Assembly (NCBI GenBank): GCA_005888095.1
Contig: VBKF01000140.1
Span: forward strand, 4,602 to 68,601
Length of the DNA: 64,000 nucleotides
Direction: 5' to 3'
Source: Deltaproteobacteria bacterium
GTDB taxonomy: Bacteria > Desulfobacterota > Binatia > DP-6
Position 1 is the stretch's first letter. Each line of letters begins with the position of its first letter. The notes beneath the pieces are model-generated. The model had not been told where the DNA came from, searched no databases, and worked only from the letters and a program-made list of their open reading frames with translations. The position numbers and the translations under genes are program-made. Below are positions 44,332 through 63,691 of this stretch, one piece after another.

Positions 44332-44812
44332 GGGCCCGCGCTTCTCCGACGCCGTCCTCGTCGAGTACCGGGCGATCCTCGCCCGCTACCCCGAGCGCCG
44401 CGCGGCCCTGCTGCCGACGCTCTGGCTCGCGCAGCGCGAGTTCGGGTGGCTCTCGCTGCCGGTCCTCGAGTACGTGGCCGAGCTGATGGAGCTGCCGCTC
44501 GCGTGGGTGACCGCCACCGCGTCGTTCTACACCATGTACTGGAAGCAGCCCCCGGGCCGCTGGCACCTCCAGGTCTGCCGCAACCTGCCGTGCGCGCTGC
44601 GCGGGGCGGACGACGTCCGGGCCGCGCTCGAACAGCGCCTCGGCATCTGTCCCGGCGAGAAGACCGCGGACGGACGGTTCTCGCTCGAGGAGGTCGAGTG
44701 CCTCGCGTCCTGCGACACGGCGCCCGTGCTCCAGGTCAACAACTCGGAGTACCACGAGAACCTGACCGTCGAGCGGACGCTCGCCCTGATCGAGCGCCTG
44801 GCCAGCACCTAG
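44321..44812 (+). CDS. nuoE: NADH-quinone oxidoreductase subunit E (24 kDa, 2Fe-2S)
   Basis: CRNLPC...CLASCDTAP cysteine ligands (thioredoxin-like [2Fe-2S]); GTG start overlapping nuoD. Confidence 0.8.
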   Translation: MTAEGPRFSDAVLVEYRAILARYPERRAALLPTLWLAQREFGWLSLPVLEYVAELMELPLAWVTATASFYTMYWKQPPGRWHLQVCRNLPCALRGADDVRAALEQRLGICPGEKTADGRFSLEEVECLASCDTAPVLQVNNSEYHENLTVERTLALIERLAST

Positions 44813-44813
44813 C

Positions 44814-45911
44814 GTGACGCCCGACGTCGCCATCGCGGCGGCGAAGGTCCTCTTCGCCCTCTTCCTCGCGCTCCAGGTGATGGGCCTGGGGGTGTTCTTC
44901 GAGCGCAAGGTGAGCGCGCTGATCCAGGACCGGATCGGCGCCAACCGCGCCGCCATCTTCGGCTTTGCCGGGCTCGGCCTGGTGAACACGCTGGTCGCCG
45001 ACCCGATCAAGTTCCTCCTGAAGGAGGACATCACGCCGGCCGAGGCCGACCGGCTGCTCCACTTCCTGGCGCCGTGCGCGAGCCTCGTGCCCGCGCTCGC
45101 CACCTTCGCCGTGGTGCCGTTCGGCGACGTGCTCGAGGTGGGCGGGCGCGTGATCAACCTGCAGGGGGCGGAGCTGAGCGTCGGCCTCCTCTTCGTGCTC
45201 GCGATGGCGTCGCTCGGCGTGTACGGCGTGGTGCTGGGCGGCTGGGCGTCGAACAACCGCTGGTCGCTGCTCGGCGGCATCCGCGGCTCGGCGCAGATGA
45301 TCTCCTACGAGATCGCCATGGGGCTCGCGCTGATCGGCGTCGTCCTCACCTACAACACGCTCGACCTCCAGGAGATCGCGCGCGCCCAGGGCCGCCTCGT
45401 GTGGGGATGGCTGCCCGCCTGGGGCATCCTCTACCAGCCGCTCGCCTTCATCATCTTCCTCGTCGCCGGCGTCGCGGAGAGCAAGCGCATCCCTTTCGAC
45501 CTCCCGGAGAGCGAGTCCGAGCTGGTGAGCGGGTACTTCACCGAGTACTCCGGCGCCAAGCACCTGATGTTCATGATGAGCGACTTCGTCGAGGTCGTGC
45601 TCGTCGCCGCCCTCGTGACGACGCTCTTCTTCGGCGGGTGGCAGGTCCCGTATCTCGGGCGCGACGGCTTCCACTTCCCCGGCGGCGCGACCCTCGGGCT
45701 GCCGTCGCTCGCCGTCGTCGTCCTCCAGGTCACGGCCTTCGCGCTGAAGGTGATCGCCTTCACCTGGCTCCAGATCGTCATCCGCTGGACGCTCCCGCGC
45801 TTTCGCTACGACCAGCTCATGCGGCTCGGGTGGCAGGGCTTGCTGCCGCTCTCGCTCGCCAACGTGATGATCTCGGCACTGGTCGTGCTGCTCGTGGAGC
45901 GGGGCGCGTGA
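44814..45911 (+). CDS. nuoH: NADH-quinone oxidoreductase subunit H
   Basis: NuoH/ND1 motifs (…GWASNNRWSLLGGIRGSAQMISYEIAMG…AESKRIPFDLPESESELVSGYFTEYSG…). Confidence 0.9.
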   Translation: MTPDVAIAAAKVLFALFLALQVMGLGVFFERKVSALIQDRIGANRAAIFGFAGLGLVNTLVADPIKFLLKEDITPAEADRLLHFLAPCASLVPALATFAVVPFGDVLEVGGRVINLQGAELSVGLLFVLAMASLGVYGVVLGGWASNNRWSLLGGIRGSAQMISYEIAMGLALIGVVLTYNTLDLQEIARAQGRLVWGWLPAWGILYQPLAFIIFLVAGVAESKRIPFDLPESESELVSGYFTEYSGAKHLMFMMSDFVEVVLVAALVTTLFFGGWQVPYLGRDGFHFPGGATLGLPSLAVVVLQVTAFALKVIAFTWLQIVIRWTLPRFRYDQLMRLGWQGLLPLSLANVMISALVVLLVERGA

Positions 45912-46402
45912 GCGCGCTCATCTTCCTCCTCCTGGCCGCGCTGGTCCTGGCGGCGGCGCTGACGGTCGTGGTGCACCCGAGCCCGGTCTACAGCGCGTGC
46001 GCGCTGGTCGTGACGCTCTTCCTCCTCTCGGTCTTCTTCGTCGCCCTCGATGCGCAGCTCGTCGCGGTGCTCCAGGTGATCGTCTACGCCGGGGCGATCG
46101 TCGTGCTCTTCCTCTTCGTCATCATGCTGCTCAACCTGACCCAGACGGAGCCGCGCCCGACGGCCGGCGCGCCGCTGGTCGCCGTCGCCGTGGGGGGCGG
46201 CGTCGCCGTCGTGGCGCTGGTGGCCACCGTGCTCCGCCGGGTCGCGCCGCCGGGTACGCCGGTGCTGCCCGCAGGCTTCGGCGACACCGCGGCGCTCGGC
46301 CGCCGGCTGTTCACGGCCTATCTGCTGCCCTTCGAGCTGACGTCGGTCCTGCTGCTCGTCGCCATCGTCGGGGCGGTGGGGCTGGCCAAGCGGAGGCCGT
46401 GA
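45908..46402 (+). CDS. nuoJ: NADH-quinone oxidoreductase subunit J
   Basis: 164-aa ND6-like membrane protein; GTG overlaps the nuoH stop. Confidence 0.8.
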
Positions 46403-46403
46403 C

Positions 46404-46715
46404 GTGCCGCCGACGGCGCCCCTCACCTGGTACCTCGGGCTCAGCGCCGTGCTGTTCGCGATCGGCGCCATCGGCGTGCTCATCCGCCGCAACGTCATCG
46501 TCATCTTCATGGCGATCGAGCTCATGCTGAACGCCGTCAACCTGACCTTCGTGGCGCTCGCCCGGAGCCTCGGCTCGATGGACGGGCAGGTGATCGTCTT
46601 CTTCGTGATGACCGTCGCCGCCGCCGAGGCGGCCGTCGGCCTCGCGATCATCATCGCGCTCTTCCGCAACGGCGAGACGATGAACGCGGACGAGCTGGTG
46701 ACGCTGCGGTGGTGA
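46404..46715 (+). CDS. nuoK: NADH-quinone oxidoreductase subunit K
   Basis: ~103-aa ND4L-like protein (…[29 protein letters not shown]…). Confidence 0.85.
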
Positions 46716-48592
46716 CGCCGACGACGCTCCTCCGCTGGATCATCCTCCTGCCGGCCGCGGGCGTGCTCTTCCACGTCTTCCTCGGGCGGCGGGCGACGGC
46801 GGCCGTGAAGCTCGTCGGCCCGGGGCTCGTGGGCGCGGCGTTCGCGGTGGCCGTGGCGGCCGCGCTCCGGCTCCGCGCGCTGCCCGAGGGCGGGCTCCTC
46901 CGCGACCACCTCTACACCTGGATCGCCGCGGGGCCCTTCCGCGCCGAGGCCGCGCTCCGGTTCGACGCACTCTCGGCGGTCATGGCGCTCGTGGTGACGG
47001 GCGTCGGCTTTCTCATCCACGTCTACTCGGTCGGCTACATGCACGGCGATCGGGGCTTCGCGCGCTACTTCGCCTACCTGAACCTGTTCACGACCGCGAT
47101 GCTCATCCTCGTGCTCGCCGACAACCTGCCGCTCCTCTTCGTCGGCTGGGAGGGCGTGGGGCTCTGCTCCTATCTCCTGATCGGCTTCTGGTACGAGAAG
47201 ACGGAGAACGCCGCGGCGGGGAAGAAGGCCTTCCTCGTGAACCGCATCGGCGACGCGGGCTTCCTCCTCGGCCTCTTTCTCCTCGCGTGGACGCTCGGCC
47301 GCCACGGCTACTGGACCCTCGACTTCGCGGCGATCGAGCGTCACCTGGACGTTCTCGCGACGGCGACCGTCGGCGGCTGGCCGGTGCCGCTCGTGGTCGG
47401 CCTCCTCCTCTTCGTCGGTGCGACGGGGAAGTCGGCCCAGATCCCCCTCTACGTCTGGCTGCCCGACGCCATGGCGGGCCCGACGCCCGTCTCCGCGCTC
47501 ATCCACGCCGCCACCATGGTCACGGCGGGTGTCTACATGATCGCGCGCCTGCACGCCGTCTATGCGCTGGCGCCCGCCGCGCTCACGGTCGTGGCCGTGG
47601 TCGGCGCCGCGACCGCGCTCTTCGCCGCGGTCATCGCCACCGCGCAGACCGACATCAAGCGCGTGCTCGCCTACTCGACCGTCAGCCAGCTCGGCTACAT
47701 GTTCCTCGGCCTCGGCGTCGGCGCGACGGGCGCCGCCATCTTCCACCTGGTGACGCACGCCTTCTTCAAGGCGCTGCTCTTCCTGGGCGCCGGGAGTGTG
47801 ATCCACGGCCTCGGCGGCGAGCAGGACATGCGCCGCATGGGGGCTCTCCGGACGCGCCTGCCGGTCACGTTCTGGACGATGACCGCGGCCGCGCTGGCCA
47901 TCGCCGGCGTGCCGCCGCTCTCGGGCTTCTTCAGCAAGGACGAGATCTTATACAGCGCGTTCGCTGGCGCGAACGCGCGGCCCATCCTCGGCGTCGTCGG
48001 CCTCGTCGCGGCGGCGCTCACCGCCTACTACACGGGGCGGCTCGTCTGCCTGACCTTCCTCGGGGAATCGCGCGTGTCGCCCGAGGCCGCGCACCACCTC
48101 CACGAATCGCCGCCGGTGATGACCGTGCCCCTCGCCGTGCTGGCGGTCGGCGCCGTCGTCGGGGGCTTCCTCCCCGTGCCGGCGCTCCTCGGTCACACGG
48201 GCGAAGGAGGACCACCCCTGGCGCTCATGGCGCTCGCCACCGGGCTCGCTGCAGGCGGCCTCTGGCTCGCGTACCAGCTCCACGTCGTCCGCCCAGACGT
48301 CCCCGAAGCGATCGCGGCGCGCCTCGGCGGCTTCTATGGGCTCGTGCGCGACAAGTTCCGCGTCGACGAGCTCTACGACGCGCTCGTCGTCCGGCCGCTG
48401 TTCGCGGCCGCCGACCTCGGGGCGCGCGGCATCGACCCGAAGCTCATCGACGGCGTCGTGAACGGCACGGGCGTGCTCGTGGCCGCGACGAGCGGGCTCT
48501 GGCGCCGGGTCCAGACCGGCAACGTCCAGCACTACGCGCTCTCCTTCCTGATCGGCGCCCTCCTGCTGCTCGGGTACTACGTCGGGCGCTGA
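46709..48592 (+). CDS. nuoL: NADH-quinone oxidoreductase subunit L
   Basis: 627-aa ND5-like antiporter-type subunit (…[19 protein letters not shown]…). Confidence 0.9.
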
Positions 48593-53654: not shown

Positions 53655-54065
53655 TCACGGCGCGATGCGCTCGAACCCTTCGCTCTTCACCAACCCTTCG
53701 ACCCGCCGGCGAATCTCGTCGCGGATCTCGCGTACGCGCTCGGGCGGCTGTCCCTTCGGGTCCGGCAGGTTCCAGTCCTCCCGGCGCAAGCCCGGCACGA
53801 ACGGGCACGCGTCGCCACACCCCATGGTGACGAGGAGCTCGGCGCCGGCGGCCAGCTCGGCCGTGAGGAGCCGAGGGGTGACGTGGCCGATCTCGATGCC
53901 CGCCTCGCGCATTGTGGCCACGACCTCGGGGTGAACGCGCGAGGCCGGGGCGGTGCCGGCCGAGAGGGCCCGCGCCCTCCTGGGATCGGCGAGCGCGTTG
54001 AAGAAGGCCGCGGCCATCTGCGAGCGCCCGGCGTTTTCGACGCACGCGAAGATCACGGTCGTCAT
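53655..54065 (-). CDS. arsC: arsenate reductase (low-molecular-weight phosphatase family)
   Basis: CVENAGRSQMA CX5R P-loop and a downstream Cys pair (MGCGDACP); start trimmed to the internal ATG (MTTVIFACVEN…). Confidence 0.75.
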   Translation of the reverse strand: MTTVIFACVENAGRSQMAAAFFNALADPRRARALSAGTAPASRVHPEVVATMREAGIEIGHVTPRLLTAELAAGAELLVTMGCGDACPFVPGLRREDWNLPDPKGQPPERVREIRDEIRRRVEGLVKSEGFERIAP

Positions 54066-54097
54066 GGTCGGCGTACCGGGCCGCTCGATCCTGCTAG

Positions 54098-54397
54098 GGT
54101 TGCCGCGGTACCAGGAGAACCTATCACACATTCACCACCACCACGCTCGGCGTTCCGAATTGTGGTGGCAACGGACCATCGTGCTTTGGACTTTGCCCGA
54201 ATGCGCACCAGTGCGTCACGAACCCGAGCACGAACCTCTGCGAGTGCAGCGGTGCCCCGCTGCCCTGCGGTGTCGTGACGGCGGACGGCATGTGCGGGGG
54301 AACGTGTCCTGCCGGGCAGGCATGCCAACTCTACACCCCAACCCTGCCGAACGGCTGCCCGGACTATCCGCGCTGCGCCTGCATCCTCGCGCAGTAG
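54098..54397 (+). other. open cysteine-rich reading frame (16 Cys in 99 codons) with no canonical start codon until late; possible disrupted or unconventional small secreted cysteine-rich peptide gene
   Basis: Translation: …NCGGNGPSCFGLCPNAHQCVTNPSTNLCECSGAPLPCGVVTADGMCGGTCPAGQACQLYTPTLPNGCPDYPRCACILAQ-stop. First in-frame GTG/ATG at 54275/54290; upstream stop at 54095. Confidence 0.3.
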
Positions 54398-54455
54398 AAA
54401 CGCGCACCGAGATGGAGCCGGCGGATGTGCGTAGGTCCGATCCAGAATCAGCTAG

Positions 54456-55085
54456 TCAGCGGCCCCCTCCCCCGACGCAGTGATCCGTGTACAGCTTGCG
54501 CTCCTCCGGGGTCATCGGCGGCGGGGCGACGAAGAACAGCGCGAAGGCTTCGCACTTCACGCCTTTGCAGCTCGTTTGGGAATAGAACCAATTCGGTGAG
54601 CTCCCCGTCTCCTTGATGGTCCACCACTTGTCGCTCGCCGCCGGGGACGGGCGAATCGGGCACCGCGCGGGCTGCAATGCCAATCCGCGATGGGTCAACG
54701 CGGCGAGCACCGTGTCCTCGCCGATCGCCTCACCCTGGTTGCGGAAGTAGACGTTGGTCACCGTCGAGCGTGTCCCGGCGGCCTTGACGGCGACGCGCCG
54801 TCCGGCGATCGTCGCCACACCGTCGCGGGAAAACATCGCGCCGCCGGGCAGTGGCGTGGACAGCATCGTCGGTGGCAGGGGTTGCCAGCGAATCTGCTCG
54901 ACGGCGTCGAGATCCTTCCACATCGAGCCCACGTCCCCTGGCGGGATCAACGCGGCGACGATCTGCGCGAAGGTGTCCTGTGGAGTCTCCGCGTGGACCA
55001 TCGCGCAGGTCCAGACGAGCATGGCTCGGACGAGGAAGGATCGTCGCACCAGGCGCGCTCGAGGTGCTGTGTCGCGTGCTGGCAC
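54456..55085 (-). CDS. secreted hypothetical protein
   Basis: Signal peptide (RRSFLVRAMLVWTCAMVHA) followed by a protein-like sequence of unknown function. Confidence 0.5.
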   Translation of the reverse strand: MPARDTAPRARLVRRSFLVRAMLVWTCAMVHAETPQDTFAQIVAALIPPGDVGSMWKDLDAVEQIRWQPLPPTMLSTPLPGGAMFSRDGVATIAGRRVAVKAAGTRSTVTNVYFRNQGEAIGEDTVLAALTHRGLALQPARCPIRPSPAASDKWWTIKETGSSPNWFYSQTSCKGVKCEAFALFFVAPPPMTPEERKLYTDHCVGGGGR

Positions 55086-55216
55086 GTCCGGAGTACCCTA
55101 TGGGGTAATCAGGTTCGAGAACGAGGTCTTCGCGTGCGCCGTCTCGGGCTCGTCAATTCCCCGACGCTCGGTCACCAATATCTCCTCCCCGCTCTTCACG
55201 AGACGCAGATACCGAC

Positions 55217-55786
55217 TCAGTTCGGCGACGGCTGCCGCGTCCCCTGCGTCCCGAAGTCCACCTTCGGCACCTTCTTCGCCTCCTCCGGCGCCTCGAAGTA
55301 CTGCTGGGGCTGGAAGCCGAACGCCCGCGCGTAGACCACGGCCGGCACGCTCTTGATGTACGCGTTGTACTCGCGGACCGCGTCGTTGTACCGCATACGC
55401 TCGACGGCGATGCGGTTCTCGGTGCCGGCGAGCTCGTCCGAGAGGCGCGCGAACTGCTGGTTGGCCTTGAGATCGGGATAGCGCTCGGCGATGGCGAGGA
55501 GTCGCCCGAGGGCGCCCGAGAGCTGGTTGGCGGCCTCGATCCGTTGCTCGCGCGTGCCGCCGGCGATCAGCCGCGCCCGCGCGTCGGCGACCCGGTCGAA
55601 GACCTCGCGCTCGTGCGTGGCGTAGCCCTTGGTCACCTCGACGAGGTTGGGGATCAGGTCGTTGCGCCGCTGGAGCTGGTTCTCCACCTGCGCCCACGAC
55701 GAGTCGACGCGCTCCTTGAGGGTCACGATGGTGTTGTAGCCGCAGCCGCCGAGCAGCGTCGCCAAGAGGACCAGAAGCCTCGCCAT
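55217..55786 (-). CDS. lemA: LemA-family protein
   Basis: Lipobox LLGGCG plus the LemA core (…RRNDLIPNLVEVTKGYATHER…RYNDAVREYN…). Confidence 0.8.
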   Translation of the reverse strand: MARLLVLLATLLGGCGYNTIVTLKERVDSSWAQVENQLQRRNDLIPNLVEVTKGYATHEREVFDRVADARARLIAGGTREQRIEAANQLSGALGRLLAIAERYPDLKANQQFARLSDELAGTENRIAVERMRYNDAVREYNAYIKSVPAVVYARAFGFQPQQYFEAPEEAKKVPKVDFGTQGTRQPSPN

Positions 55787-55795
55787 GTCTCCTCC

Positions 55796-56536
55796 TCACC
55801 AGCTCCGTCCGGCGCCGCCGCCGCCGAAGCTGCCGCCGCCGAAGCCCCCGAAGCCGCCCCCGCCGCCGCCGAAGCCGCCCCCGAAGCCGCCGAAGGGGCC
55901 GACGGGGTAGAAGCCGCCGCGCCGGAAGCGGGCCGGGCCGGTGGACGCCTGATATAGCACGAGCGCTGCGAAGGCGAGGATGATGAGGAGCAGGACCCAG
56001 CCCGGGAGCGGGGCCGGGGCCGGAGCACGCGGCCGCGGGGTCCCGGTGAGGACGACGCCGCGCGCGTCGGCGATGCGCGTGGCCAGCGCGGCGACGCCCC
56101 GCCACACGCCCTCGTCGATGCGGCCGGCGCGGAAGGCGGGCATGACCTCTCGATCCTCGATCTCGCCGACGAGGCCGTCGGGCAGGATGCCCTCGAGGCC
56201 GTAGCCGACCAGGATGCGGAGCTTGCGGTCGCGGGTGGCGACGAGGAAGACGACGCCGGTGTCCTCTCGCTTTCGCCCGGGCTTCCAGGCGTCGGCGATG
56301 CGCATGGCGTAGGTGAAGTCGTCGAGGGGCGCCGTCGTGTCGACGGCGACGACGGCGATCTCGGCGCCCGTCTTGTCGCGCAGCTCCTCGTTCAGGCGCT
56401 CGATCCGTGCCCGGACGTCGGGGCGGATGACGTGCGGGAGGTCGGTCACGTAGCCCCGCGGCACGGGCACCGGCGGCTCGGCCGCGCGCGCCGCCGTGAC
56501 GAGCGCCAGGGCGAGGAGCGCGACGAGGCTATGCAT
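55796..56536 (-). CDS. TPM-domain (YgcG-like) protein with Gly-rich C-terminal tail
   Basis: Signal peptide, TPM phosphatase-like domain (GYVTDL…EIAVVAV…VVFLVATRDRKLRI), a transmembrane helix and a FGGGFGGGGG tail; canonical LemA partner. Confidence 0.75.
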   Translation of the reverse strand: MHSLVALLALALVTAARAAEPPVPVPRGYVTDLPHVIRPDVRARIERLNEELRDKTGAEIAVVAVDTTAPLDDFTYAMRIADAWKPGRKREDTGVVFLVATRDRKLRILVGYGLEGILPDGLVGEIEDREVMPAFRAGRIDEGVWRGVAALATRIADARGVVLTGTPRPRAPAPAPLPGWVLLLIILAFAALVLYQASTGPARFRRGGFYPVGPFGGFGGGFGGGGGGFGGFGGGSFGGGGAGRSW

Positions 56537-57257
56537 CGAGCGCGTCGAGGGCCGCGACGATGCGCTCGACCTCGGCGAGGTAGCCGCCGAACTCCGCGCG
56601 CAGCGCGGCGGCGCCGAGCCGGGCTTCGCCGGCGCGGTGGTCGAGGAGCCGCTGCATGACGGGGAGGGGTCCGAGGAGCCGCGCGCCGGCGGCCAGCACC
56701 TCGCCGTAGCCGTTCGCCTCCTCGGCGCCGCGCAGCTTGATGAGGTGCCTCAGCACGACGAGGAAGCTCTTCAGCGACTCCACCATGAGCTGCTCGAGCG
56801 CGGCCGGCCGTCCCGCCGCGTCGAGGAAGAGCGCGCGCAGCCGGAGAAGCTTGCCCCGGGCCTCGTGCTCGCACTGGCGTCTCAGCGCCGCGCGCTCCAC
56901 GACGACGGCTGCGAACGGGTCGGCACCGGCGAGCACGCGGTGCTGGCGGCGGATGTCGTCGAGCTCCATGGGGAAGGCGTCGCGCGCCGACTCGAGGTAC
57001 TCGCGATCGGCGACGAGCGGCAGGGCGAAACGCTTCTTGCGCCACCGGGCGATGACCGGGACGAGCGCCTCGAGCACGTCGGGCGTGACACGCGGCACGA
57101 CCACGGCGACGTTCAGGTCCGACCGGTGCGTCACCCAGTCGTCGCCCAATGCGCTGCCGTAGAGGACGAGCGACACGAGCCGGTCGCCGAGCGCTGCCTG
57201 GACGTCGCGAGTGAAGGCGGCGATCTGCGCCTCGACCGCCGCGTCGGGGCGAGGCAT
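56529..57257 (-). CDS. nucleotidyltransferase-domain protein (Pol-beta superfamily) with helical C-terminal domain
   Basis: LYGSALGDD...SDLNVAVVV (GS...D.D) minimal nucleotidyltransferase motif. Confidence 0.6.
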   Translation of the reverse strand: MPRPDAAVEAQIAAFTRDVQAALGDRLVSLVLYGSALGDDWVTHRSDLNVAVVVPRVTPDVLEALVPVIARWRKKRFALPLVADREYLESARDAFPMELDDIRRQHRVLAGADPFAAVVVERAALRRQCEHEARGKLLRLRALFLDAAGRPAALEQLMVESLKSFLVVLRHLIKLRGAEEANGYGEVLAAGARLLGPLPVMQRLLDHRAGEARLGAAALRAEFGGYLAEVERIVAALDALDA

Positions 57258-57340: not shown

Positions 57341-58051
57341 GTGGCGCTCGCCGAGGAGCTTCGTGAAGCCGTCGGCTCGCTCACGGTCTTCGGCCGCTCC
57401 GACGCCCGTGCGCGGCCGCAGACGCTTGCCGCGGCGCTCGCGTTCTATCCGGCCGTCGGCCTGCTGCTCGGCCTGGTGGCGAGCGGCGTCGCCTGGGCGG
57501 TGGATCAGGGCTGCCCGGGGTTCGCCGGAGCGGCCGGTGTCCTCGTCCTTGCCGCGCTGAGCGGCGCCCGCGTCTCGCGTGCCCTCGCGGCAGCGGGTGC
57601 GCTCGGCCTCTCGACGGCGGGGCTCGCGTTCGCGGCCAAGCTGTGGTCGGTCACGGGGCTTCCGGCGCCGGCGCGCACCGCGGCGCTTCTCCTTGCCCCG
57701 ATGCTCGGCCGCTGGGCGATCGCCGTCCAGTGCTACGGGGGTATGCCCGCCGCGGCCTCCGGGCCTGCGGCGCTCGCGGGCCGAGCACGGTTCCGCGAGT
57801 TCGGCATCGCGAGCGTGACCGCCTTCGCCGTGACGCTCGCCGTCGCCGACGCGGCGGGGCTGCTCGTCCTGGTCGCCGCGGCGCTCGCAACGGTGGCGCT
57901 GCGCGTCTACGCATACCGCGGTGCCGGCAGGATGACGGAGCGGCTGCTCGCCGCGGCCGCAGAGCTCGTCGAGACGGTGGTGATGGTCGCCTTCGCGCTG
58001 CTCGCCTCGCCGCACGAGCCGGGCGCGGCCCTGGCCCGCGGGCCATCTTGA
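57341..58051 (+). CDS. polytopic membrane protein, possibly CobS-like (adenosylcobinamide-GDP ribazoletransferase); weak
   Basis: GTG start; PAVGLLLGLVASG resembles the CobS FPLIGLLLG region; ~6 transmembrane segments. Confidence 0.35.
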   Translation: MALAEELREAVGSLTVFGRSDARARPQTLAAALAFYPAVGLLLGLVASGVAWAVDQGCPGFAGAAGVLVLAALSGARVSRALAAAGALGLSTAGLAFAAKLWSVTGLPAPARTAALLLAPMLGRWAIAVQCYGGMPAAASGPAALAGRARFREFGIASVTAFAVTLAVADAAGLLVLVAAALATVALRVYAYRGAGRMTERLLAAAAELVETVVMVAFALLASPHEPGAALARGPS

Positions 58052-58087: not shown

Positions 58088-58708
58088 ATGGGCTTCTACG
58101 CGGACCACATCTTCCCGCGCCTCATGGACTGGACCCTTCGGGGCCCGGTGCACCAGGCCGAGCGGGAGAAGGCTCTCGAGTCCGTCCGCGGTGAGGTGCT
58201 GGAGGTGGGGTTCGGCACCGGGCTGAACCTCCGGCACTATCCGCCCGGCGTGACCCGGCTCACGGCCATCGACGTCGCGAAGATGCTCGAGCTCCGGGTC
58301 GCGCGGCGCATCGCCGCGGCGCCGTTTCCTGTCGAGCGCGCGCGGCTCAGCGGCGATGAGCTACCGTTTCCCGATGACCGGTTCGATTGCGTGGTGACGA
58401 CGTTGACCCTCTGCAGCATCAGGGACCCGGTCGCGGCGTTGCGTCAGATCCGCCGCGTCCTGAAACCCGAGGGGACGTACGTGTTCCTCGAGCACGGACG
58501 CAGCGACGACGAGCGCGTTGCCCGCCGCCAGGACTTCTTCAACCCCCTCCAGCGACGGGTTGCGTGCGGCTGCAACATCAACCGCCGGATCGACGCGCTC
58601 ATTCGCGAGGCCGGTCTCGAGGTCCGGAGCCTCGAGCGCTACGTCCTCCGGGGTAATCCCCGGATCATGGCGGAGATGTACCGGGGGACTGCCGGGCGGA
58701 TGGAGTGA
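58088..58708 (+). CDS. class I SAM-dependent methyltransferase
   Basis: VLEVGFGTG motif I, ...DCVV... motif II, LKPEGTYVFLEH motif. Confidence 0.75.
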   Translation: MGFYADHIFPRLMDWTLRGPVHQAEREKALESVRGEVLEVGFGTGLNLRHYPPGVTRLTAIDVAKMLELRVARRIAAAPFPVERARLSGDELPFPDDRFDCVVTTLTLCSIRDPVAALRQIRRVLKPEGTYVFLEHGRSDDERVARRQDFFNPLQRRVACGCNINRRIDALIREAGLEVRSLERYVLRGNPRIMAEMYRGTAGRME

Positions 58709-60057
58709 TGAGCCTCGAAGAGCTGTCCAAGTGGAGCGGCGAGTCGACGGAGCACCTCCTCGAGTGGCGGTCGCTCGGGCTCGTGGGCGGCGGTCGCGAC
58801 GACTTCGGCCCCGAGGATGTCGAACGCGCGCGGCTCATTCGCTTCCTCTTGCGCCGCGGGATCCGTCTCGAGGCGATCGTGAAGGTCGACCGTGAGCAGG
58901 ACCTCCTCGCCTCCCACGTAAGGGCCGCCTTCGCGTCCGGGGTGGGGCGGTCGTACTCCCTGGAGGAAGCGGTCGGCATCGTCAGACTGGACCTCGCGAC
59001 AGTCCGGAGGTTCTGGCGGTCGATGAGCTTCGGCGCGCAGGGCGAGCGGCTCTACGAGGAGGACGTGCAGGCGCTGAAGACGTTGAAGGTCGCGCTCGAC
59101 GCGGGGTTTCCGGAGGAGGCCCTGCTGCAGCTGGTACGCGTCTACGCCGACGCCCTCGGGCGCGTCGCGGAGGCAGAGGTCCGCCTCTTTCACTTCTACG
59201 TCCACGAGCGGCTGAAGGCGGGGGGACTCGCGGGCCGGGAGCTCATCGAGGCCACCGACGCGTCGGGCGACCGCATGAGACCGATCATCGAGCCCGTGCT
59301 GCTGTACTTTCACCAGAAAGGAATGGAGCAGGCGGCGAGGGAAGACGTCCTCCTGCACTGGCAAGAGGAGGCGGGCCTCGAGGGCACGGCGGAAGTGCCG
59401 GCGCAGCTGCGGGCAGCGGTGTTCTTCGTCGATCTCTCCAGCTTCACGCCGCTCGCCGAGGCGATGGGCGACGCGGCCGCGGCGGAGGTGCTTGCCCGCT
59501 TCTCGCAGCTCGTGCGGGAAGCGGTGAGCCGCTGCGAAGGACGTGTCATCAAACAGATCGGGGATGCCTTCATGCTGGTGTTCTCGGACGCACGCGCCGC
59601 AGTCACCTGCGCGCTCGAGATCGAGCAGCGGACGGCGCAGGAGCCCCAGTTCCCAGCCGCGAGGAGCGGCGGTCATTATGGCCCGGTGCTCTACCGCGAG
59701 GGCGATTACCTCGGCGTCACCGTGAACGTCGCGGCGCGCCTGGCCGACGAGGCGGGCCGTCATCAGGTGCTGGTGAGCGAAGCGCTCAGGCGGGAGGCCG
59801 CCGGCGCGCCGGACGTGGAGTTCGTGCCGCTCGGCAGGCGGCGTCTGAAGGGCGTAGCCGACGAGGTCGAGCTCTTCGAGGCCGTGCGCCGTACGGAGGC
59901 CGGGGCAGGCCGGCGCCAGGTCGATCCCGTGTGCGGCATGGAGCTCGGCCCGGGAGAGTCGGCGGCGAGGCTCGTGTTCGACGGGCGCGAGCAGGTGTTC
60001 TGCTCGCAGGGGTGCCTGCAGCGCTTCGTCGCGACGCCGGAGCGATACGGGGGATGA
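58705..60057 (+). CDS. MerR-type HTH / class III nucleotide cyclase / YHS(TRASH)-like metal-binding domain fusion protein
   Basis: N-terminal MSLEELSKWSGESTEHLLEWRSLGLV (MerR-like HTH); cyclase core AAVFFVDLSSFTP…IGDAFMLVF; C-terminal DPVCGMELG…FCSQGC. Confidence 0.7.
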   Translation: MMSLEELSKWSGESTEHLLEWRSLGLVGGGRDDFGPEDVERARLIRFLLRRGIRLEAIVKVDREQDLLASHVRAAFASGVGRSYSLEEAVGIVRLDLATVRRFWRSMSFGAQGERLYEEDVQALKTLKVALDAGFPEEALLQLVRVYADALGRVAEAEVRLFHFYVHERLKAGGLAGRELIEATDASGDRMRPIIEPVLLYFHQKGMEQAAREDVLLHWQEEAGLEGTAEVPAQLRAAVFFVDLSSFTPLAEAMGDAAAAEVLARFSQLVREAVSRCEGRVIKQIGDAFMLVFSDARAAVTCALEIEQRTAQEPQFPAARSGGHYGPVLYREGDYLGVTVNVAARLADEAGRHQVLVSEALRREAAGAPDVEFVPLGRRRLKGVADEVELFEAVRRTEAGAGRRQVDPVCGMELGPGESAARLVFDGREQVFCSQGCLQRFVATPERYGG

Positions 60058-60174: not shown

Positions 60175-60942
60175 ATGCTGACGCTCTACGACGACGTGTT
60201 CAGTCCCTACGCGAGGAAGGTGCGCATCGCGCTCTACGAGAAGGGCGTCGCCTTCGAGCGCGTGCGCGCGCTGCACGGCGACTGCAACCGGACCGACTTC
60301 CTCCACGTGAACCCCCGCGCGGAAGTGCCGGCGCTCGTCGACGGGGACATCCACCTCTACGACTCGACCGTCATCTGCGAGTACCTGGAGGATTGCTATC
60401 CCGCGCCGCCCATCTATCCGCGGGACCCGGCTGCGCGCGCGCAGTGCCGGCTTCTCGAGGACCTCGCGGACACGCAGCTCGACGGCGCGCTCTATGCGGT
60501 CGCCATCGTCGAGATGGGGCGAGGCGAAGCGCATCCGGCCATCCACGAGGCCACGGGACGAGACCTTCTTCGCCTCTACGACGAGCTGGAGCGCCGGGCG
60601 CGCGAGCCCTTCTTCTGCGGCGACTTCTCCGTCGCGGACATGGCGCTCGCGCCGCACCTCATGGCCGCGATGTTTCTCGGCTTCCCGCTCGACCCGTCAC
60701 GGCACCCGAAGGTCACGGCGTGGATGGACCGCGTGCAGGCGCGGCCCTCGGTCGCCCGCGACAACGCGGACGTGATGGAGACGCTACAACGGCTCCAAGC
60801 CGCGGGACAGCCGGGCTTCGACCCGTACCGGGTGCAGTGGAGAAGCGACCGGCTGGAGTGGGTGATGAAGAACGGCCTCGCCGAGTGGTTCATGGAGGAG
60901 GTGCGAGCCGGCCGCGTCTTCTTCCCGCTCTCGCTCGGGTAG
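60175..60942 (+). CDS. glutathione S-transferase family protein
   Basis: N-terminal thioredoxin-like LYDDVFSPYARKVRIAL…VPAL and a C-terminal GST helical domain. Confidence 0.7.
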   Translation: MLTLYDDVFSPYARKVRIALYEKGVAFERVRALHGDCNRTDFLHVNPRAEVPALVDGDIHLYDSTVICEYLEDCYPAPPIYPRDPAARAQCRLLEDLADTQLDGALYAVAIVEMGRGEAHPAIHEATGRDLLRLYDELERRAREPFFCGDFSVADMALAPHLMAAMFLGFPLDPSRHPKVTAWMDRVQARPSVARDNADVMETLQRLQAAGQPGFDPYRVQWRSDRLEWVMKNGLAEWFMEEVRAGRVFFPLSLG

Positions 60943-60945
60943 AGA

Positions 60946-61989
60946 GTGCCGCGCAGCGGGGCCGGGATGTACGGTCTTCTCCTCGCGCTCGTCTCCGCCG
61001 CGCTCTTCGGCGCTGCGACGCCGGCTGGCAAGGTGCTGCTGGCCGACTTCACCCCCTTTCAGCTCGCCGGGCTTCTCTACGTCGGGGCGGCGCTCGGTGT
61101 CGGTCCCATCGCCGCGCTCGACCGTCGGGCCACACCCGGGCTCGACCGCACGAACCGCATGCGTCTCGCGGGCGCGGTGTTGTTCGGTGGCATCGTGGGC
61201 CCGGTCCTCCTCCTCTTCGGGCTCCGATTCACGGCCGCGGGGTCCGTCGCCCTGCTGCTGAACTTCGAGATGGCGGCGACGGCGGTGCTCGGGGTGGCGC
61301 TCTTCGGCGAGCATCTCGGTGGGCGAGGGTGGCTCGGCGTGGCCGGCGTCGTCGCCGCCGGAGGCGTGCTCGCATGGGCGAGCGGATGGCCGGGAGCGGT
61401 CTCCGCGTCGTTGGTCGCGGGTGCGTGCGTCTGCTGGGGGCTCGACAACAACCTGACCGCGCTCATCGACGGCATGTCGCCGAGCCTGACCACGTTCGGG
61501 AAGGGCATCATCGCGGGCACGACGAATCTCCTCCTCGGCGCCTGGCTGGCTCCGCTCACCGCTCCGGCGTTCCACGTCGCGGTCGCGCTCGTCGTCGGCG
61601 CACTCTGCTACGGCGCGAGCATCGCGCTCTACATCACGGCCGCCCATCACGAGGGCGCCACGCGGACGCAGGCGGTCTTCGCGAGTGCGCCGTTCATCGG
61701 CGCCGCGTTGTCGTGGCTCGTGCTCGGGGAAACGCTGGAGGGGCCGTACCTTCTGGCGGGTAGTGTCTTCGTTTCGTCCGTCGCCCTGCTCCTGCTCGAC
61801 CGCCACGATCACTTCCATGCCCACGAGCCGCTCGCCCACGTCCACAGCCATCGGCACGACGACGGCCACCATCTCCACGAGCATCCGGGGCTGCCGGCGT
61901 CCGAGCGGCACTCGCACTGGCACGAGCATCAGCCGCTGGGGCACGTTCACCCGCACGGCTCGGACCTCCATCACCGACACGGACGGTGA
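60946..61989 (+). CDS. EamA/DMT-family transporter with His-rich C-terminal tail
   Basis: 10-transmembrane duplicated EamA topology; tail HDHFHAHEPLAHVHSHRHDDGHHLHEHPGLPASERHSHWHEHQPLGHVHPHGSDLHHRHG. Confidence 0.7.
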   Translation: MPRSGAGMYGLLLALVSAALFGAATPAGKVLLADFTPFQLAGLLYVGAALGVGPIAALDRRATPGLDRTNRMRLAGAVLFGGIVGPVLLLFGLRFTAAGSVALLLNFEMAATAVLGVALFGEHLGGRGWLGVAGVVAAGGVLAWASGWPGAVSASLVAGACVCWGLDNNLTALIDGMSPSLTTFGKGIIAGTTNLLLGAWLAPLTAPAFHVAVALVVGALCYGASIALYITAAHHEGATRTQAVFASAPFIGAALSWLVLGETLEGPYLLAGSVFVSSVALLLLDRHDHFHAHEPLAHVHSHRHDDGHHLHEHPGLPASERHSHWHEHQPLGHVHPHGSDLHHRHGR

Positions 61990-62052: not shown

Positions 62053-63468
62053 TCAGTTGGTGACGTTGACCAGCGTCATCATCCCTGACTCGGCGTGCTC
62101 CAAGACGTGGCAGTGCAGCATCCATGTCCCGCGGTCCTGCGGGACCAGCCCAACGTCCACCGTCTCCTTCGCATGCAGGAGGACGGTATCGCGCCAGAAA
62201 GGCTCCTCGACGCGTTCGCCGTTGCGGGCGAGCACCTTGAAGAACTGCCCGTGGATGTGCATCGGGTGCAGCCGGAACGAGTCGTTCGCGAAGCGAAGCT
62301 TGCTCCACTCGCCGTACGGCAGGGTTTGCATGTTCCGCGGCCGTGCCCCGTGGTCCGCGTGGTCGTAGGCCTCACCGTTGATCGTCCACTGGATGCCGAA
62401 CGGGCCGCCCGCGCGTGCGTCGAGCCGATACTCGGCGCGGGTGGCGAGCTCCCGCGTGTTCCCCCACGCGGGCACGTGTGCGCGCGCCGGCGAAGCGAAG
62501 TCCGGCGTAGCGACGACCGCGTCGGTCACGACGATCTCGGCGAGGGGGATGGGCTGCTGGGTGAAGCGGTCTACCACCACGACGCGTTGCCCGCCCCGGT
62601 TGGCGGCAACGGTGATGTCGAGATCCAGCCGGTTGCCCGGTGCTAACTCGAATCCGACGGGGTCAATCGGCCGCGCCGCGTACATGCCGTCGACGGCGAT
62701 CACCTTGGCGTCGAGCCCAGAGAGGTCCGGTCTGAAGACGCGACCGTTGGCGACATTCAGCAGCCGGAGCCGGATCCGTTCGCCGGCCTTGACGAAGAGC
62801 TGCTCGCGGGTCCGGCCATTCACCGTGACGACGTTGCCCCAGCGGCCGTCGTGGGCGAGGTCGTGGCGGGTGTTGAACTGCGGGAAGATTTCACCCTCCG
62901 ATGTCAGCAGCCAGTCGTCGAGCACCCACATCACGTCCTGCGAGTAGGGCCGCGGTTCGACATCCTCGACGACGAGCACCCCGAACAGCCCCCGCTCGAC
63001 CTGCTCGCTGGCTCTCACGTGGGGATGGAACCAAAACGTCCCAGCATCCTTCGGGGTGAACTCGTAGACGAACGTCTCGCCCGGTTGGACGGCAGGCTGC
63101 GTCACGCCCGGTACCCCGTCCATGGCGTTCGGCACACGCACCCCGTGCCAGTGGATCGTCGTGGGTTGAGGAAGCCGGTTGGTCAGCGTCGCCCGGACGG
63201 TCTCGCCAAGCCGAACACGAAGCACGGGTCCCGGGACCTGTCCGTTGTAGGCCCACACCTGGAGTGGCCGGCCGTCAAACAGCGTGACGGTGGCCGGGGC
63301 GGCCGTCAGCGAAAACTCGCGGGTAACGCCAACGGGAGTGGCATCGGCGGGGTAGGAGCCCGCGAACTCCCGTAGCTCTGGCGAGCTCCTGCACGATACC
63401 AGCGCTCCGAAGACGGCCGCGCCGCCGACTGCAACGAGGCAGACGCGCGGAGTTCCGACGGTTCCCAT
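62053..63468 (-). CDS. multicopper oxidase
   Basis: Copper-site motifs HWHG (type 2/3), HPMHIHG and HCHVLEHAESGM (type 1/3); start trimmed to the ATG at 63468. Confidence 0.8.
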   Translation of the reverse strand: MGTVGTPRVCLVAVGGAAVFGALVSCRSSPELREFAGSYPADATPVGVTREFSLTAAPATVTLFDGRPLQVWAYNGQVPGPVLRVRLGETVRATLTNRLPQPTTIHWHGVRVPNAMDGVPGVTQPAVQPGETFVYEFTPKDAGTFWFHPHVRASEQVERGLFGVLVVEDVEPRPYSQDVMWVLDDWLLTSEGEIFPQFNTRHDLAHDGRWGNVVTVNGRTREQLFVKAGERIRLRLLNVANGRVFRPDLSGLDAKVIAVDGMYAARPIDPVGFELAPGNRLDLDITVAANRGGQRVVVVDRFTQQPIPLAEIVVTDAVVATPDFASPARAHVPAWGNTRELATRAEYRLDARAGGPFGIQWTINGEAYDHADHGARPRNMQTLPYGEWSKLRFANDSFRLHPMHIHGQFFKVLARNGERVEEPFWRDTVLLHAKETVDVGLVPQDRGTWMLHCHVLEHAESGMMTLVNVTN

Positions 63469-63691
63469 CTGGGGCCGGGGTAGCAGTCGGCGGCTCGAGA
63501 GACAAACGTGGCTCCCGACCTGAACCCGCAAGAGGAACGGCGCAGCTGGAACGCCCTCCGCGCCAGCGCCTCACGGGGTCGCGTAGCCCGCGTGCGCATG
63601 AGGTCGACGGCGGTTGTGCCAGCGGTGCAGCCCGAGAGCGCGACGGCCAATGTGCTAGTATCGGAATGATCCCAAGCCGACGGGGATGGGT

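Follow-up and report, generated by a model that had tools for sequence, protein, structure and literature searches.

We identified a gene in the window (the whole 64,000-nucleotide stretch of DNA that was analysed) whose apparently active product carries two regulatory modules known until now from separate work in mycobacteria: a YHS tail that senses copper and an N-terminal switch of the Rv1264 type, built from MerR-like repeats. The best explanation, to which we give roughly an even chance of being correct, is that these two modules together control a cAMP-making class IIIc cyclase. The protein is a variant of known sensors and not a new kind of system. The gene and its modules are listed below, with residues numbered for the 450-residue form.

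58705–60057, plus strand: cyclase gene, a 450-aa open reading frame from GTG 58705 encoding a four-module class IIIc adenylyl cyclase
58708–58890, plus strand: repeat 1, a MerR-type winged helix-turn-helix with a shortened wing (residues 2–62, Pfam MerR_1)
58819–59301, plus strand: span of Ad_Cy_reg (PF16701), the Rv1264-type regulatory domain (residues 39–199)
58951–59112, plus strand: repeat 2, a degenerate MerR-like helix-turn-helix common to Rv1264 (residues 83–136)
59113–59370, plus strand: two long helices leading to the catalytic domain (residues 137–172 and 177–222, from AF2 secondary structure)
59404–59889, plus strand: class IIIc cyclase homology domain (residues 234–395; D243, K283, D287, R320, D334, N341, R345)
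59920–60048, plus strand: C-terminal YHS/TRASH domain (residues 406–448; D407, C410, C433, C437)

The open reading frame is a real gene, and it encodes a single 450-aa protein as originally predicted. Its GC content by codon position is 0.76/0.45/0.89 in a window of 72% GC, which is typical of genuine genes there. Codon comparison with a 95%-identical orthologue gave 31 synonymous and 23 nonsynonymous differences, and comparison with an 85%-identical orthologue gave 63 and 65; the counts against both orthologues indicate purifying selection. An alternative in-frame ATG at 58708 would give a protein of 449 aa, the same length as the closest homologue (P0001). This ATG overlaps the stop codon of an upstream methyltransferase gene as TGATG (junction sequence TGATG/GTGA).

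The original prediction named three domains, and a Pfam search places all of them above their curated cut-offs: MerR_1 (PF13411; residues 2–62, 6e-8, 33.1 bits vs a cut-off of 21.6), Guanylate_cyc (PF00211; residues 237–385, 4.1e-8, 33.5 bits vs 21.9), and YHS (residues 406–448, 4.9e-11, 42.9 bits vs 30.3). It overlooked a fourth, Ad_Cy_reg (residues 39–199, 7.4e-9, 36.1 bits vs 28.6). The AF2 model of the protein has a pLDDT of 89.8, and its best Foldseek matches are the Rv1264 structures 1y10 and 1y11. Rv1264 is the best solved relative both by sequence (E 3.8e-20, query residues 35–413) and by fold (Foldseek, E 8e-22). Of the two states of Rv1264, the model resembles the active one (1y11, TMt 0.67) more than the inhibited one (1y10, TMt 0.51).

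We found 1285 homologues of the window protein, and nearly all of the best 120 share the four-domain architecture. An exact-sequence search with the window protein gave no match, and the closest relative is a MAG labelled Deltaproteobacteria (GCA_005879485.1). The distribution of the fusion in other genomes had been proposed as a check, and the architecture turns out to be widespread across Chloroflexota, Actinomycetota (including cultured Mycobacterium), and Binatia-like MAGs. Cultured carriers include Mycobacterium innocens, M. gastri, and Mycolicibacterium moriokaense. In the open-access literature, we found no study of the four-domain architecture or of the biochemistry of any member.

The catalytic core is apparently competent. 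All six canonical residues (D243, K283, D287, D334, N341, and R345) are present and aligned to those of Rv1264, and they are invariant or nearly so among 53 orthologues and 118 homologues. Among them are D243 and D287, which bear out the two metal-binding Asp motifs noted originally. An additional Arg320 is present in the window protein and is His in 13 of the 53 orthologues. Against Rv1264 and Ma1120, which the literature assigns to class IIIc, the catalytic motifs line up gap-free, as does the stretch from H324 to R345, in keeping with the short dimerisation arm of the class IIIc type. Foldseek superposes the catalytic domain on Ma1120 and Rv1900c with a TMt of 0.93–0.95 and an rmsd of 1.2–1.5 Å. 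In class III cyclases, a Lys/Asp substrate-specifying pair selects ATP. Since the pair here is Lys283/Asp334, the predicted product is cAMP and not cGMP, so that only the first of the two products suggested originally is retained. The same pair answers the concern that substrate-specifying residues might reveal an inactive cyclase, as both are intact and conserved.

The C-terminal Cys motif, which had been read as a metal-binding module, proved to carry the full YHS ligand set, D407-x2-C410-x22-C433-x3-C437, conserved in 51–52 of 53 orthologues. Among the modules, only the cyclase domain is better conserved than YHS. In the AF2 model the catalytic domain finishes with a strand that runs to residue 395, leaving a ~10-residue linker to the YHS domain, and this linker is the least conserved segment of the protein. 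Shorter proteins of 213–251 aa, consisting of a cyclase homology domain and a YHS domain, are 40–50% identical to residues 231–448 of the window protein.

Coupling of copper to cAMP is not new, since a model for cyclase–YHS fusions (AC-YHS) has been published. The AC-YHS of M. phlei (MpAC, EID14989.1) is switched on by 1–10 µM Cu2+; activation requires the YHS domain, is specific for copper over Zn, Fe, Cr, Co, and Ni, and was reversed by EDTA (Linder 2015, PLoS One 10:e0141843, PMC4626032). This reversal argues that the activation is not oxidation. AC-YHS enzymes were assigned to class IIIc, and their role as copper sensors was graded as “probable” on the evidence of Cu2+ in vitro (Linder 2015, PMC4626032). 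The AC-YHS set of that study spanned 216–473 aa (PMC4626032); therefore, the long forms were probably included, with their N-terminus unannotated. A search limited to open-access papers found no follow-up work on AC-YHS.

The region originally described as a MerR helix-turn-helix is, on sequence profiles and the predicted structure, the first of two MerR-like repeats that jointly form the Rv1264-type regulatory domain. The family profile of repeat 1 matches Tn501 MerR at 1.8e-8 along with ~20 other MerR-family structures, including TipA, NmlR, Mta, SCO5550, SoxR, CadR, and CueR, and its predicted helices span residues 4–11, 15–23, 36–50, and 55–65 (AF2). The two repeats align to each other in hhalign with 95.5% probability (E 1.4e-8, 70 columns). 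Repeat 2 has a profile match to Rv1264N at 3.9e-6 and weak matches to RacA and CarH; an NCBIfam MerD match covers residues 92–172 (E 0.078). When the model of residues 1–230 was searched separately, Rv1264N (2ev1-3 and 1y10) gave the best matches, with E values of 5e-6 to 3e-4, followed by MerR-family regulators, of which SCO5550 is nearest. The long helices align with the region of Rv1264 that precedes its catalytic domain and carry conserved H163, H167, and H203. We considered whether this His triad is tied to the presence of YHS, and the link is only partial, as the triad also occurs in some YHS-less proteins.

Rv1264 of M. tuberculosis (paralogue Rv2212) is a pH-sensing, fatty-acid-binding adenylyl cyclase (PDB 1Y10, 1Y11, 2EV1-4). 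Because the MerR-like repeats form an Rv1264-type domain, they are expected to autoinhibit or switch the cyclase and not necessarily to bind DNA. The sequence alignment gave no reliable mapping of the pH-sensing residues of Rv1264 onto the window protein. A description of Rv1264 as MerR-like was not found in the open-access literature, to which the search was confined.

The genes flanking the cyclase gene are as follows.

57341–58051, plus strand: upstream gene, weakly CobS-like (236 aa; CobS 3.9e-4, below cut-off)
58088–58708, plus strand: class I SAM-dependent methyltransferase (Pfam Methyltransf_11, 3.2e-17)
60175–60942, plus strand: downstream glutathione S-transferase (Pfam GST_N_3, 1e-19; GST_C_2)
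60946–61989, plus strand: EamA/DMT membrane protein, C-terminal tail rich in His (Pfam EamA, 3.5e-23)
62053–63531, minus strand: three-domain multicopper oxidase, CopA/CueO-like (Pfam Cu-oxidase_3/2/1)

The cyclase gene had been placed at the head of a copper-type locus. This fails, as the CobS-like and methyltransferase genes precede it and the methyltransferase stop overlaps its start. The CobS-like gene, which is syntenic in the related loci L001, L004, and L005, is probably the first gene of the transcription unit; the methyltransferase gene is present in L001 and L005 and absent from the 86%-identical L004. Downstream, the glutathione S-transferase, the EamA/DMT protein (22 His in the last 67 residues), and the multicopper oxidase are all present as described originally, but the oxidase gene is on the minus strand and convergent and so lies outside the cyclase transcript. 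The NCBIfam matches of the oxidase to copper_res_A (4.4e-59) and to CueO (9.5e-50) stay under the equivalog cut-offs, and the protein contains HWH, HPH, HIH, and HCH motifs. An LVSC lipobox-like sequence suggests that it probably carries a lipoprotein signal.

The proposed copper-locus context does not extend through the family, as the GST/EamA/oxidase neighbourhood occurs only in one 95%-identical relative (L001, for GST and EamA). A conserved “copper operon” was rejected, since homologues of the GST and EamA genes adjoin the cyclase gene only in that locus. We also rejected an upstream metal-resistance island in the window; the genes there have housekeeping functions, encoding complex I subunits, PanE, a low-molecular-weight phosphatase, and LemA/TPM. 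No CRP-like cAMP receptor was found in the window using E. coli CRP as the query.

Copper-type genes nevertheless recur near orthologues in several independent lineages. Genes for a multicopper oxidase or an HMA-P1B ATPase lie near 14 of 73 orthologous loci within the flanks examined, and 13 of the 18 matches fall within 3 kb of the cyclase gene, a zone that makes up 36% of the flank (binomial P 0.002); the background frequency of such genes in the carrier genomes is an assumed value in this analysis. In Mycobacterium innocens, a CPC-type Cu ATPase gene is directly upstream of the cyclase gene on the same strand. Among the linked P1B ATPases, one carries CPD rather than CPC, together with a degenerate HMA domain. 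The other 59 loci have no nearby copper gene, with housekeeping neighbours such as acpS, nnr/yjeF, thyX, and pepN. The cyclase gene usually sits inside operons, following a co-directional gene in 35 of 56 loci with a gap that is often <40 bp.

In the mechanism that we prefer, the protein would be a soluble class IIIc adenylyl cyclase that works as a homodimer, produces cAMP, and answers to two regulatory inputs. The YHS/TRASH domain would bind a copper ion through D407, C410, C433, and C437, and the bound copper would reposition the paired catalytic domains so that they become active, as in M. phlei AC-YHS. Against this, copper in the cytoplasm is mostly Cu(I), and the M. phlei result is for Cu2+ in vitro with a protein that lacks the N-terminal module. 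The N-terminal 230 residues, predicted to consist of two MerR-like winged-helix repeats and then two long helices and homologous to the Rv1264 regulatory domain, would serve as a dimeric platform that keeps the catalytic domains inhibited or released; the corresponding switch in Rv1264 responds to pH, and that domain is the one that binds a fatty acid. The MerR-like helices may be a structural scaffold from a transcription-factor ancestor rather than a working DNA reader, and effectors whose genes lie elsewhere would respond to the cAMP. What the analysis shows directly is the homology of the domains, intact catalytic and ligand residues, their conservation across the family, a fold predicted with high confidence, and repeated linkage to copper genes; that the protein binds copper and is activated by it, which signal the N-terminus receives, and what the cAMP acts on are inferred.

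Several other explanations have to be weighed. That the protein is catalytically dead and serves solely for metal binding or scaffolding is very improbable, given the conserved canonical residues, the presence of Arg320, and the close superposition on active class IIIc cyclases, and we found nothing in its favour. A stronger competitor, although still unlikely in our estimate, is that the Rv1264-like N-terminus is the main regulator, responding to pH, a fatty acid, or another ligand, with the nearby copper genes coincidental and the YHS domain holding Zn structurally, acting as a thiol redox switch, or sensing a metal other than copper. Homology to Rv1264 over nearly the entire length is consistent with this, as are the 59 loci without a nearby copper gene and the linked ATPase with CPD in place of CPC. 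Furthermore, TRASH/YHS domains elsewhere bind other ions, such as Cd (ribosomal protein L24e), or no metal (toluene-4-monooxygenase) (Linder 2015, PMC4626032). However, MpAC has the same ligands at the same spacing and is activated by Cu2+ but by none of Zn, Fe, Cr, Co, and Ni, and the EDTA reversal in MpAC argues against oxidation. The enrichment of multicopper oxidase and P1B genes close to the cyclase gene in independent lineages, computed with the assumed background, also argues for copper sensing by the YHS domain.

The original prediction suggested that the protein perhaps also binds DNA directly, and this looks unlikely. We consider it rather doubtful that the protein is a bifunctional one-component regulator, in which the N-terminal winged helix would read specific DNA as well as regulate a copper-controlled cyclase. 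In its favour, the Pfam and Tn501 MerR matches mark repeat 1 as a genuine DNA-binding domain of the MerR family by sequence. In the family consensus, the recognition helix keeps a MerR-like RLRxW, and the hydrophobic core keeps L18, W21, G25, and L26. The full repeat is kept in YHS-bearing and YHS-less relatives alike, though Rv1264 has lost its first two helices, and SCO5550, the next structural neighbour after Rv1264, is an activator of the MerR family that binds DNA and forms an unusual dimer. The wing, however, differs from the intact wing of MerR regulators: it has a 5-residue deletion relative to MerR and TipA, is without the MerR Arg/Tyr motif, and has acidic residues in the loop that remains. 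Position 19 is Leu in the window protein and Arg in the family. The net charge is -4 for the helix-turn-helix and wing (family mean -2.7) and -8 for the whole regulatory module (family mean -13). The two repeats are also the least conserved domains, with a pairwise identity of 0.33 vs 0.54 for the cyclase domain, the linker alone being lower; low conservation of the DNA-binding part is the opposite of what is usual in MerR regulators. Scanning the intergenic regions revealed no convincing operator-like inverted repeat or palindrome and no sigma-70-like promoter, though the consensus may not fit a high-GC host and targets may lie elsewhere; a terminator scan of these regions gave nothing usable. 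The overlap with the upstream neighbour and the frequent close spacing to co-directional genes in other loci likewise speak against a DNA-reading regulator. An extended version, in which a DNA-bound, copper-gated cAMP generator carries an Rv1264-type domain that arose from a tandem-duplicated MerR domain and still reads DNA in the long forms, is improbable.

If the copper-sensing model with an Rv1264-type switch is true, one cyclase would integrate copper through its YHS domain with pH, lipid, or another signal through its Rv1264-type module. The link from copper to cAMP, so far demonstrated for a single small enzyme from mycobacteria, would then reach into soil Chloroflexota, Actinomycetota, and Binatia-like bacteria. 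The two MerR-like repeats provide a much-studied pH sensor of mycobacteria with an evolutionary origin and make DNA binding by the long forms a concrete, testable question. The question is experimentally tractable because cultured carriers exist. No new field is opened, as each module and the idea of copper sensing had been published before.

The window protein can be compared with four known systems. Like MerR, CueR, TipA, NmlR, and SCO5550, it has a MerR-type winged helix-turn-helix at residues 2–62 by sequence profile and fold, and the long helix after repeat 2 recalls the MerR dimerisation helix. The antiparallel coiled coil that carries a C-terminal effector site in these regulators is absent from it. 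Instead, a second helix-turn-helix-like repeat directly follows the first, the long helices lead into the cyclase domain, and the output is an enzyme; the acidic surface, low conservation, and 5-residue-shorter wing set it apart as well. TRASH/YHS domains also occur in P1B-type copper ATPases and in copper regulators of archaea (Ettema et al. 2003, cited in Linder 2015). They share the small Cys-rich metal-binding fold and motif of the window protein but are joined there to a transporter or a DNA-binding regulator, whereas here the domain is joined to the C-terminus of a cyclase.

In Rv1264, too, Ad_Cy_reg is joined to a catalytic domain of class IIIc, and the homology covers almost the whole protein at 24–25% identity, with repeat 2 and the long helices in common. 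Rv1264 lacks the first ~34 residues, corresponding to helices 1 and 2 of the MerR-type helix-turn-helix, and has no YHS domain. MpAC has ligands D178/C181/C204/C208, with spacing identical to that of D407/C410/C433/C437, and all of the catalytic residues found in the window protein; Cu2+ activation has been shown for MpAC only. At 233 aa, MpAC has no N-terminal regulatory module, whereas the window protein has ~230 extra N-terminal residues that make up the two MerR-like repeats and the long helices. The AC-YHS architecture of Linder is a catalytic domain followed by YHS, and the window protein exceeds it by the MerR_1/Ad_Cy_reg module.

The cyclase gene is where it was predicted to be, at 58705..60057 (+), a 450-aa open reading frame with a GTG start. 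An alternative start, the in-frame ATG at 58708, shares bases with the upstream gene's stop (TGATG) and would give a 449-aa product, the length of the closest homologue; orthologue N-termini align to within ~3 residues of the start used here. Codon-position GC (0.76/0.45/0.89) and codon differences from orthologues rich in synonymous changes (31 synonymous/23 nonsynonymous at 95% identity; 63/65 at 85%) show that this is a real gene and not a chance open reading frame of a window with 72% GC. Using curated cut-offs, four Pfam families were identified in the protein:

Residues 2-62: MerR_1
Residues 39-199: Ad_Cy_reg
Residues 237-385: Guanylate_cyc
Residues 406-448: YHS

The original prediction of a three-domain fusion was correct for MerR_1, Guanylate_cyc, and YHS but overlooked Ad_Cy_reg, and the N-terminus therefore has to be read differently. 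An extra precomputed Pfam match, PF28507, is present in four-domain homologues P0009, P0014, P0023, P0034, P0087, and P0110; our Pfam scan did not report it for the window protein.

The predicted MerR-family helix-turn-helix (HTH) is genuine. In addition to the Pfam match, a profile built from residues 1-80 of 53 orthologues matched Tn501 MerR in the PDB (1.8e-8), along with TipA, NmlR, Mta, SCO5550, SoxR, CadR, and CueR. It is not a free-standing DNA-binding domain, as residues 83-200 are, judging by profile comparison, a second, degenerate copy of the same MerR-like unit. An hhalign comparison of the two halves aligned repeat 1 (residues 2-62) with repeat 2 (from residue 83) over 70 columns with 95.5% probability and an E of 1.4e-8. 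The repeat 2 profile matched the regulatory domain of the Mycobacterium tuberculosis class IIIc cyclase Rv1264 (3.9e-6), with weak further matches to RacA and CarH, which have MerR-type folds. When residues 1-230 were modeled separately (pLDDT 90.9), the first structural matches were Rv1264 regulatory domains (E 5e-6 to 3e-4), followed by SCO5550 and then by MerR-family regulators only. From the duplication and both sets of matches, the Rv1264-type regulatory domain (Ad_Cy_reg; window 58705-59370, residues 1-222) appears to consist of two MerR-like repeats plus two long helices. The complete repeat 1 is also present in YHS-less relatives of ~400 aa. This evidence that the Rv1264-type domain descends from tandem MerR-like repeats is the most interesting by-product of our analysis; no paper found in a search of the open-access literature states such an origin.

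The two long helices carry an H-x3-H pair, H163 (59191-59193) and H167 (59203-59205), plus H203 (59311-59313). These residues are nearly invariant in the close family, and all three occur in 28 of the 46 YHS-bearing clusters. In distant relatives without YHS, these positions are often Arg/Glu/Tyr or His/Glu/Tyr. The histidines may serve as a pH sensor or provide a second metal site.

A phmmer search against solved structures returned Rv1264 as the best relative (query residues 35-413, E 3.8e-20), followed by the catalytic domains of two class IIIc enzymes, Ma1120 and Rv1900c. D243, K283, D287, R320, D334, N341, and R345 coincide with Rv1264 catalytic residues in the phmmer alignment, where the arm region also aligned without gaps. 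The predicted metal-binding aspartates are both present (D243 and D287). Across 53 genome orthologues and 118 database homologues, the six canonical catalytic residues vary little or not at all; at the additional Arg320, 13 of the 53 orthologues have His. A Lys/Asp pair is well established in class III cyclases as marking ATP rather than GTP as the substrate. The pair is intact here, so the product should be cAMP, and cGMP is unlikely. An AlphaFold2 model of the full chain, built on 118 sequences, was confident, with a mean pLDDT of 89.8 and a pTM of 0.79. Its catalytic domain superimposed on Ma1120 and Rv1900c with TM scores of 0.93-0.95 and rmsd values of 1.2-1.5 Å. The whole chain matched the Rv1264 holoenzyme (E 8e-22), and the model is closer to the active state (1Y11) than to the inhibited state (1Y10).

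The predicted C-terminal Cys-rich metal-binding module is a YHS domain with its putative ligands D407, C410, C433, and C437 intact; these are kept in 51-52 of 53 orthologues. Our full-text search returned one directly relevant paper, on a 233-aa class IIIc cyclase from Mycobacterium phlei in which a catalytic domain is followed by a C-terminal YHS domain and nothing else (Linder 2015, PLoS One, PMC4626032). With Mg2+ as cofactor, that enzyme showed no activity until 1-10 µM Cu2+ was supplied; Zn, Fe, Cr, Co, and Ni did not activate it, the copper effect was reversible by EDTA, and copper only inhibited the isolated catalytic domain (PMC4626032). Its proposed ligands, D178, C181, C204, and C208 (PMC4626032), have the same spacing as those of the window protein. 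The original interpretation is supported in part: the predicted coupling of metal, possibly copper, to cyclic nucleotide synthesis fits this likeness in its cAMP half. Given the M. phlei results, copper-to-cAMP coupling by a cyclase-YHS fusion is a model that the literature already holds for two-domain proteins rather than a new idea.

The surrounding genes are as follows:

43105-48592: complex I subunit genes, further upstream
53655-57257 (-): ArsC-like low-molecular-weight phosphatase, LemA/TPM-domain gene pair, and unannotated 242-aa open reading frame
57341-58051 (+): CobS-like gene, first in the apparent transcription unit
58088-58708 (+): methyltransferase, overlapping the cyclase start
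60175-60942 (+): GST, after a 117-nt gap from the cyclase
60946-61989 (+): EamA/DMT protein, last in the apparent transcription unit
62053-63531 (-): multicopper oxidase, convergent, with a lipobox-like LVSC and the full set of four copper-site motifs

The transcription unit appears to run from the CobS-like gene through the methyltransferase, cyclase, and GST to EamA/DMT, which places two genes before a cyclase that had been predicted to head the locus. The GST, the DMT protein with a His-rich tail, and the multicopper oxidase were all found downstream as predicted. The oxidase is not co-transcribed with the cyclase, as it lies convergently on the minus strand. Of the 67 residues in the EamA/DMT tail (61789-61989), 22 are His, a composition unusual in this family and suggestive of metal handling. 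The oxidase reading frame has a long N-terminal extension, and an internal Met followed by ...AVFGALVSC resembles a lipoprotein signal with a lipobox; the true start is therefore probably ~21 codons downstream of the longest one. Upstream of the CobS-like gene are housekeeping genes, and Pfam identified no metal-related gene in the 53655-57257 block or among the complex I genes.

We then compared this context with other genomes. In the 95% identical relative L001 (MAG GCA_005879485.1), methyltransferase, cyclase, GST, EamA, and oxidase follow one another as in the window. Its oxidase gene call is only 387 aa; a His-tailed EamA protein adjoining the cyclase was seen only there and in the window. 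L004 (86% identical) has LemA, TPM, and the 242-aa open reading frame in synteny with the window, then the CobS-like gene and cyclase, and its contig ends just past the cyclase. The methyltransferase is present in the 95% and 77% (L005) relatives but absent in L004 (region compared, L004:7223-7995), where the CobS-like gene directly precedes the cyclase, which points to recent insertion or loss. Among 57 species-representative loci, GST and EamA never adjoin the cyclase beyond the close relatives. The commonest neighbors are acpS, nnr/yjeF, thyX, pepN, fumarase, and a BlaI-type repressor. In many Chloroflexota/Dehalococcoidia, the cyclase is flanked by acpS (holo-ACP synthase), directly upstream and in the same orientation, and by nnr/yjeF (NAD(P)HX repair) on its other side (L008, L010, L012, L014, L022-L025, and L028, with thyX nearby). 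This context is conserved, housekeeping, and without metal genes.

Copper-type genes recur elsewhere. A multicopper oxidase adjoins the cyclase in three actinobacterial MAGs (L026, L040, and L063). The oxidases at L040:7482-9749 (-) and L026:11895-13610 (+) have inserted HMBD heavy-metal-binding repeats (PF19335), and a DUF3703 segment lies just upstream within the L040 open reading frame call. In Mycobacterium innocens MK13 (L047), an HMA-P1B copper ATPase with GMTCxxC and CPC motifs (L047:7672-9963, +) ends 37 nt before a four-domain cyclase gene (L047:10001-11323, +). This is likely a ctp-cyclase operon in a cultured species, and the pair is suited to genetic tests. More P1B ATPases occur within a few kb of the cyclase in other loci. 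The P1B-type ATPase at L030:12067-14430 (-) has CPD rather than CPC in its transmembrane metal site and a degenerate HMA domain lacking the CxxC motif. Overall, 14 of 73 loci have a multicopper oxidase or P1B gene within the available flank, and 13 of 18 copper-gene matches lie ≤3 kb from the cyclase, a zone that covers only 36% of the flanking sequence considered (binomial P 0.002). At an assumed background of 4-12 such genes per 5 Mb, chance would give only 0.8-2.4; one gene was counted twice through split alignments, and the loci are not fully independent. We regard this linkage as supportive, not decisive.

Our leading proposal is that the window protein is a class IIIc adenylyl cyclase that works as a dimer and takes two inputs. 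Copper bound by the YHS tail would push the catalytic dimer toward its active arrangement, following the M. phlei example, while a second signal would cause the N-terminal Rv1264-type module to hold or free the catalytic domains; cAMP would then act on receptors encoded elsewhere, and no CRP-like gene was found within the window. Tews et al. 2005 and Findeisen et al. 2007 reportedly identified pH as the Rv1264 signal and a fatty acid bound by its regulatory domain. We consider the proposal as a whole an even call. Its observed basis is the homology, the intact catalytic and ligand residues, the confident fold, the conservation, and the recurrent copper linkage; metal binding and its specificity, activation, the N-terminal signal, and the targets are inferred. 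A non-copper or structural role for the YHS domain is less probable, though still a serious contender. That the protein is an inactive enzyme is very improbable given its catalytic residues.

The original prediction also allowed for direct DNA binding, and the HTH itself speaks for it. However, compared with MerR and TipA, its wing hairpin is shorter by 5 residues and has no counterpart of the Arg/Tyr motif, and position 19 is Leu where the family consensus has a MerR-like Arg. The net charge of the HTH and wing is -4 (family mean -2.7), and that of the whole regulatory module is -8 (family mean -13). Conservation in MerR regulators is normally highest in the DNA-binding domain, whereas here the two repeats have the lowest mean pairwise identity of the domains (0.33, compared with 0.49 for YHS and 0.54 for the cyclase domain). 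Neither a promoter-like site nor a convincing palindrome was found in the intergenic regions, and a co-directional gene lies closely upstream of the cyclase in 35 of 56 loci, often with a gap of <40 bp. DNA binding is unproven and, on this indirect evidence, looks unlikely, at roughly one chance in eight, and binding at distant sites is likewise improbable.

A word-indexed search returned 1285 relatives; in nearly every one of the top 120, at 57-95% identity, the four Pfam families of the window protein recur. Among the names given at the source are "YHS domain-containing protein," "adenylate cyclase regulatory domain-containing protein," and [quoted passage not shown] Databases already recognize this architecture automatically; our literature search found no experimental study of it. 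An exhaustive search of 50%-identity representatives gave 264 clusters at E <= 1e-30. Among the 74 representatives of 370-520 aa listed, 46 have the YHS ligand residues and 26 have no YHS domain; catalytic-domain-plus-YHS forms of 213-251 aa are also among the matches listed. Full-length copies occur in Chloroflexota/Dehalococcoidia, Actinomycetota, and Binatia genomes, including the cultured M. innocens, M. gastri, and Mycolicibacterium moriokaense.

Unlike Rv1264, in which the first two helices have been lost, the window protein has a complete repeat 1. Compared with the M. phlei type, its linker of ~10 residues from the end of the last catalytic strand (residue 395) to YHS, taken from the AlphaFold2 model and Pfam bounds, falls inside the reported 8-11 (Linder 2015, PMC4626032). 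That study described 26 sequences of 216-473 aa as a catalytic domain plus YHS only (PMC4626032), and we infer that the long members very probably belong to the same four-domain subfamily, with an N-terminus that then had no annotation. The window protein represents an unstudied, widespread, database-annotated subfamily in which a YHS copper sensor is joined to an Rv1264-type regulator.
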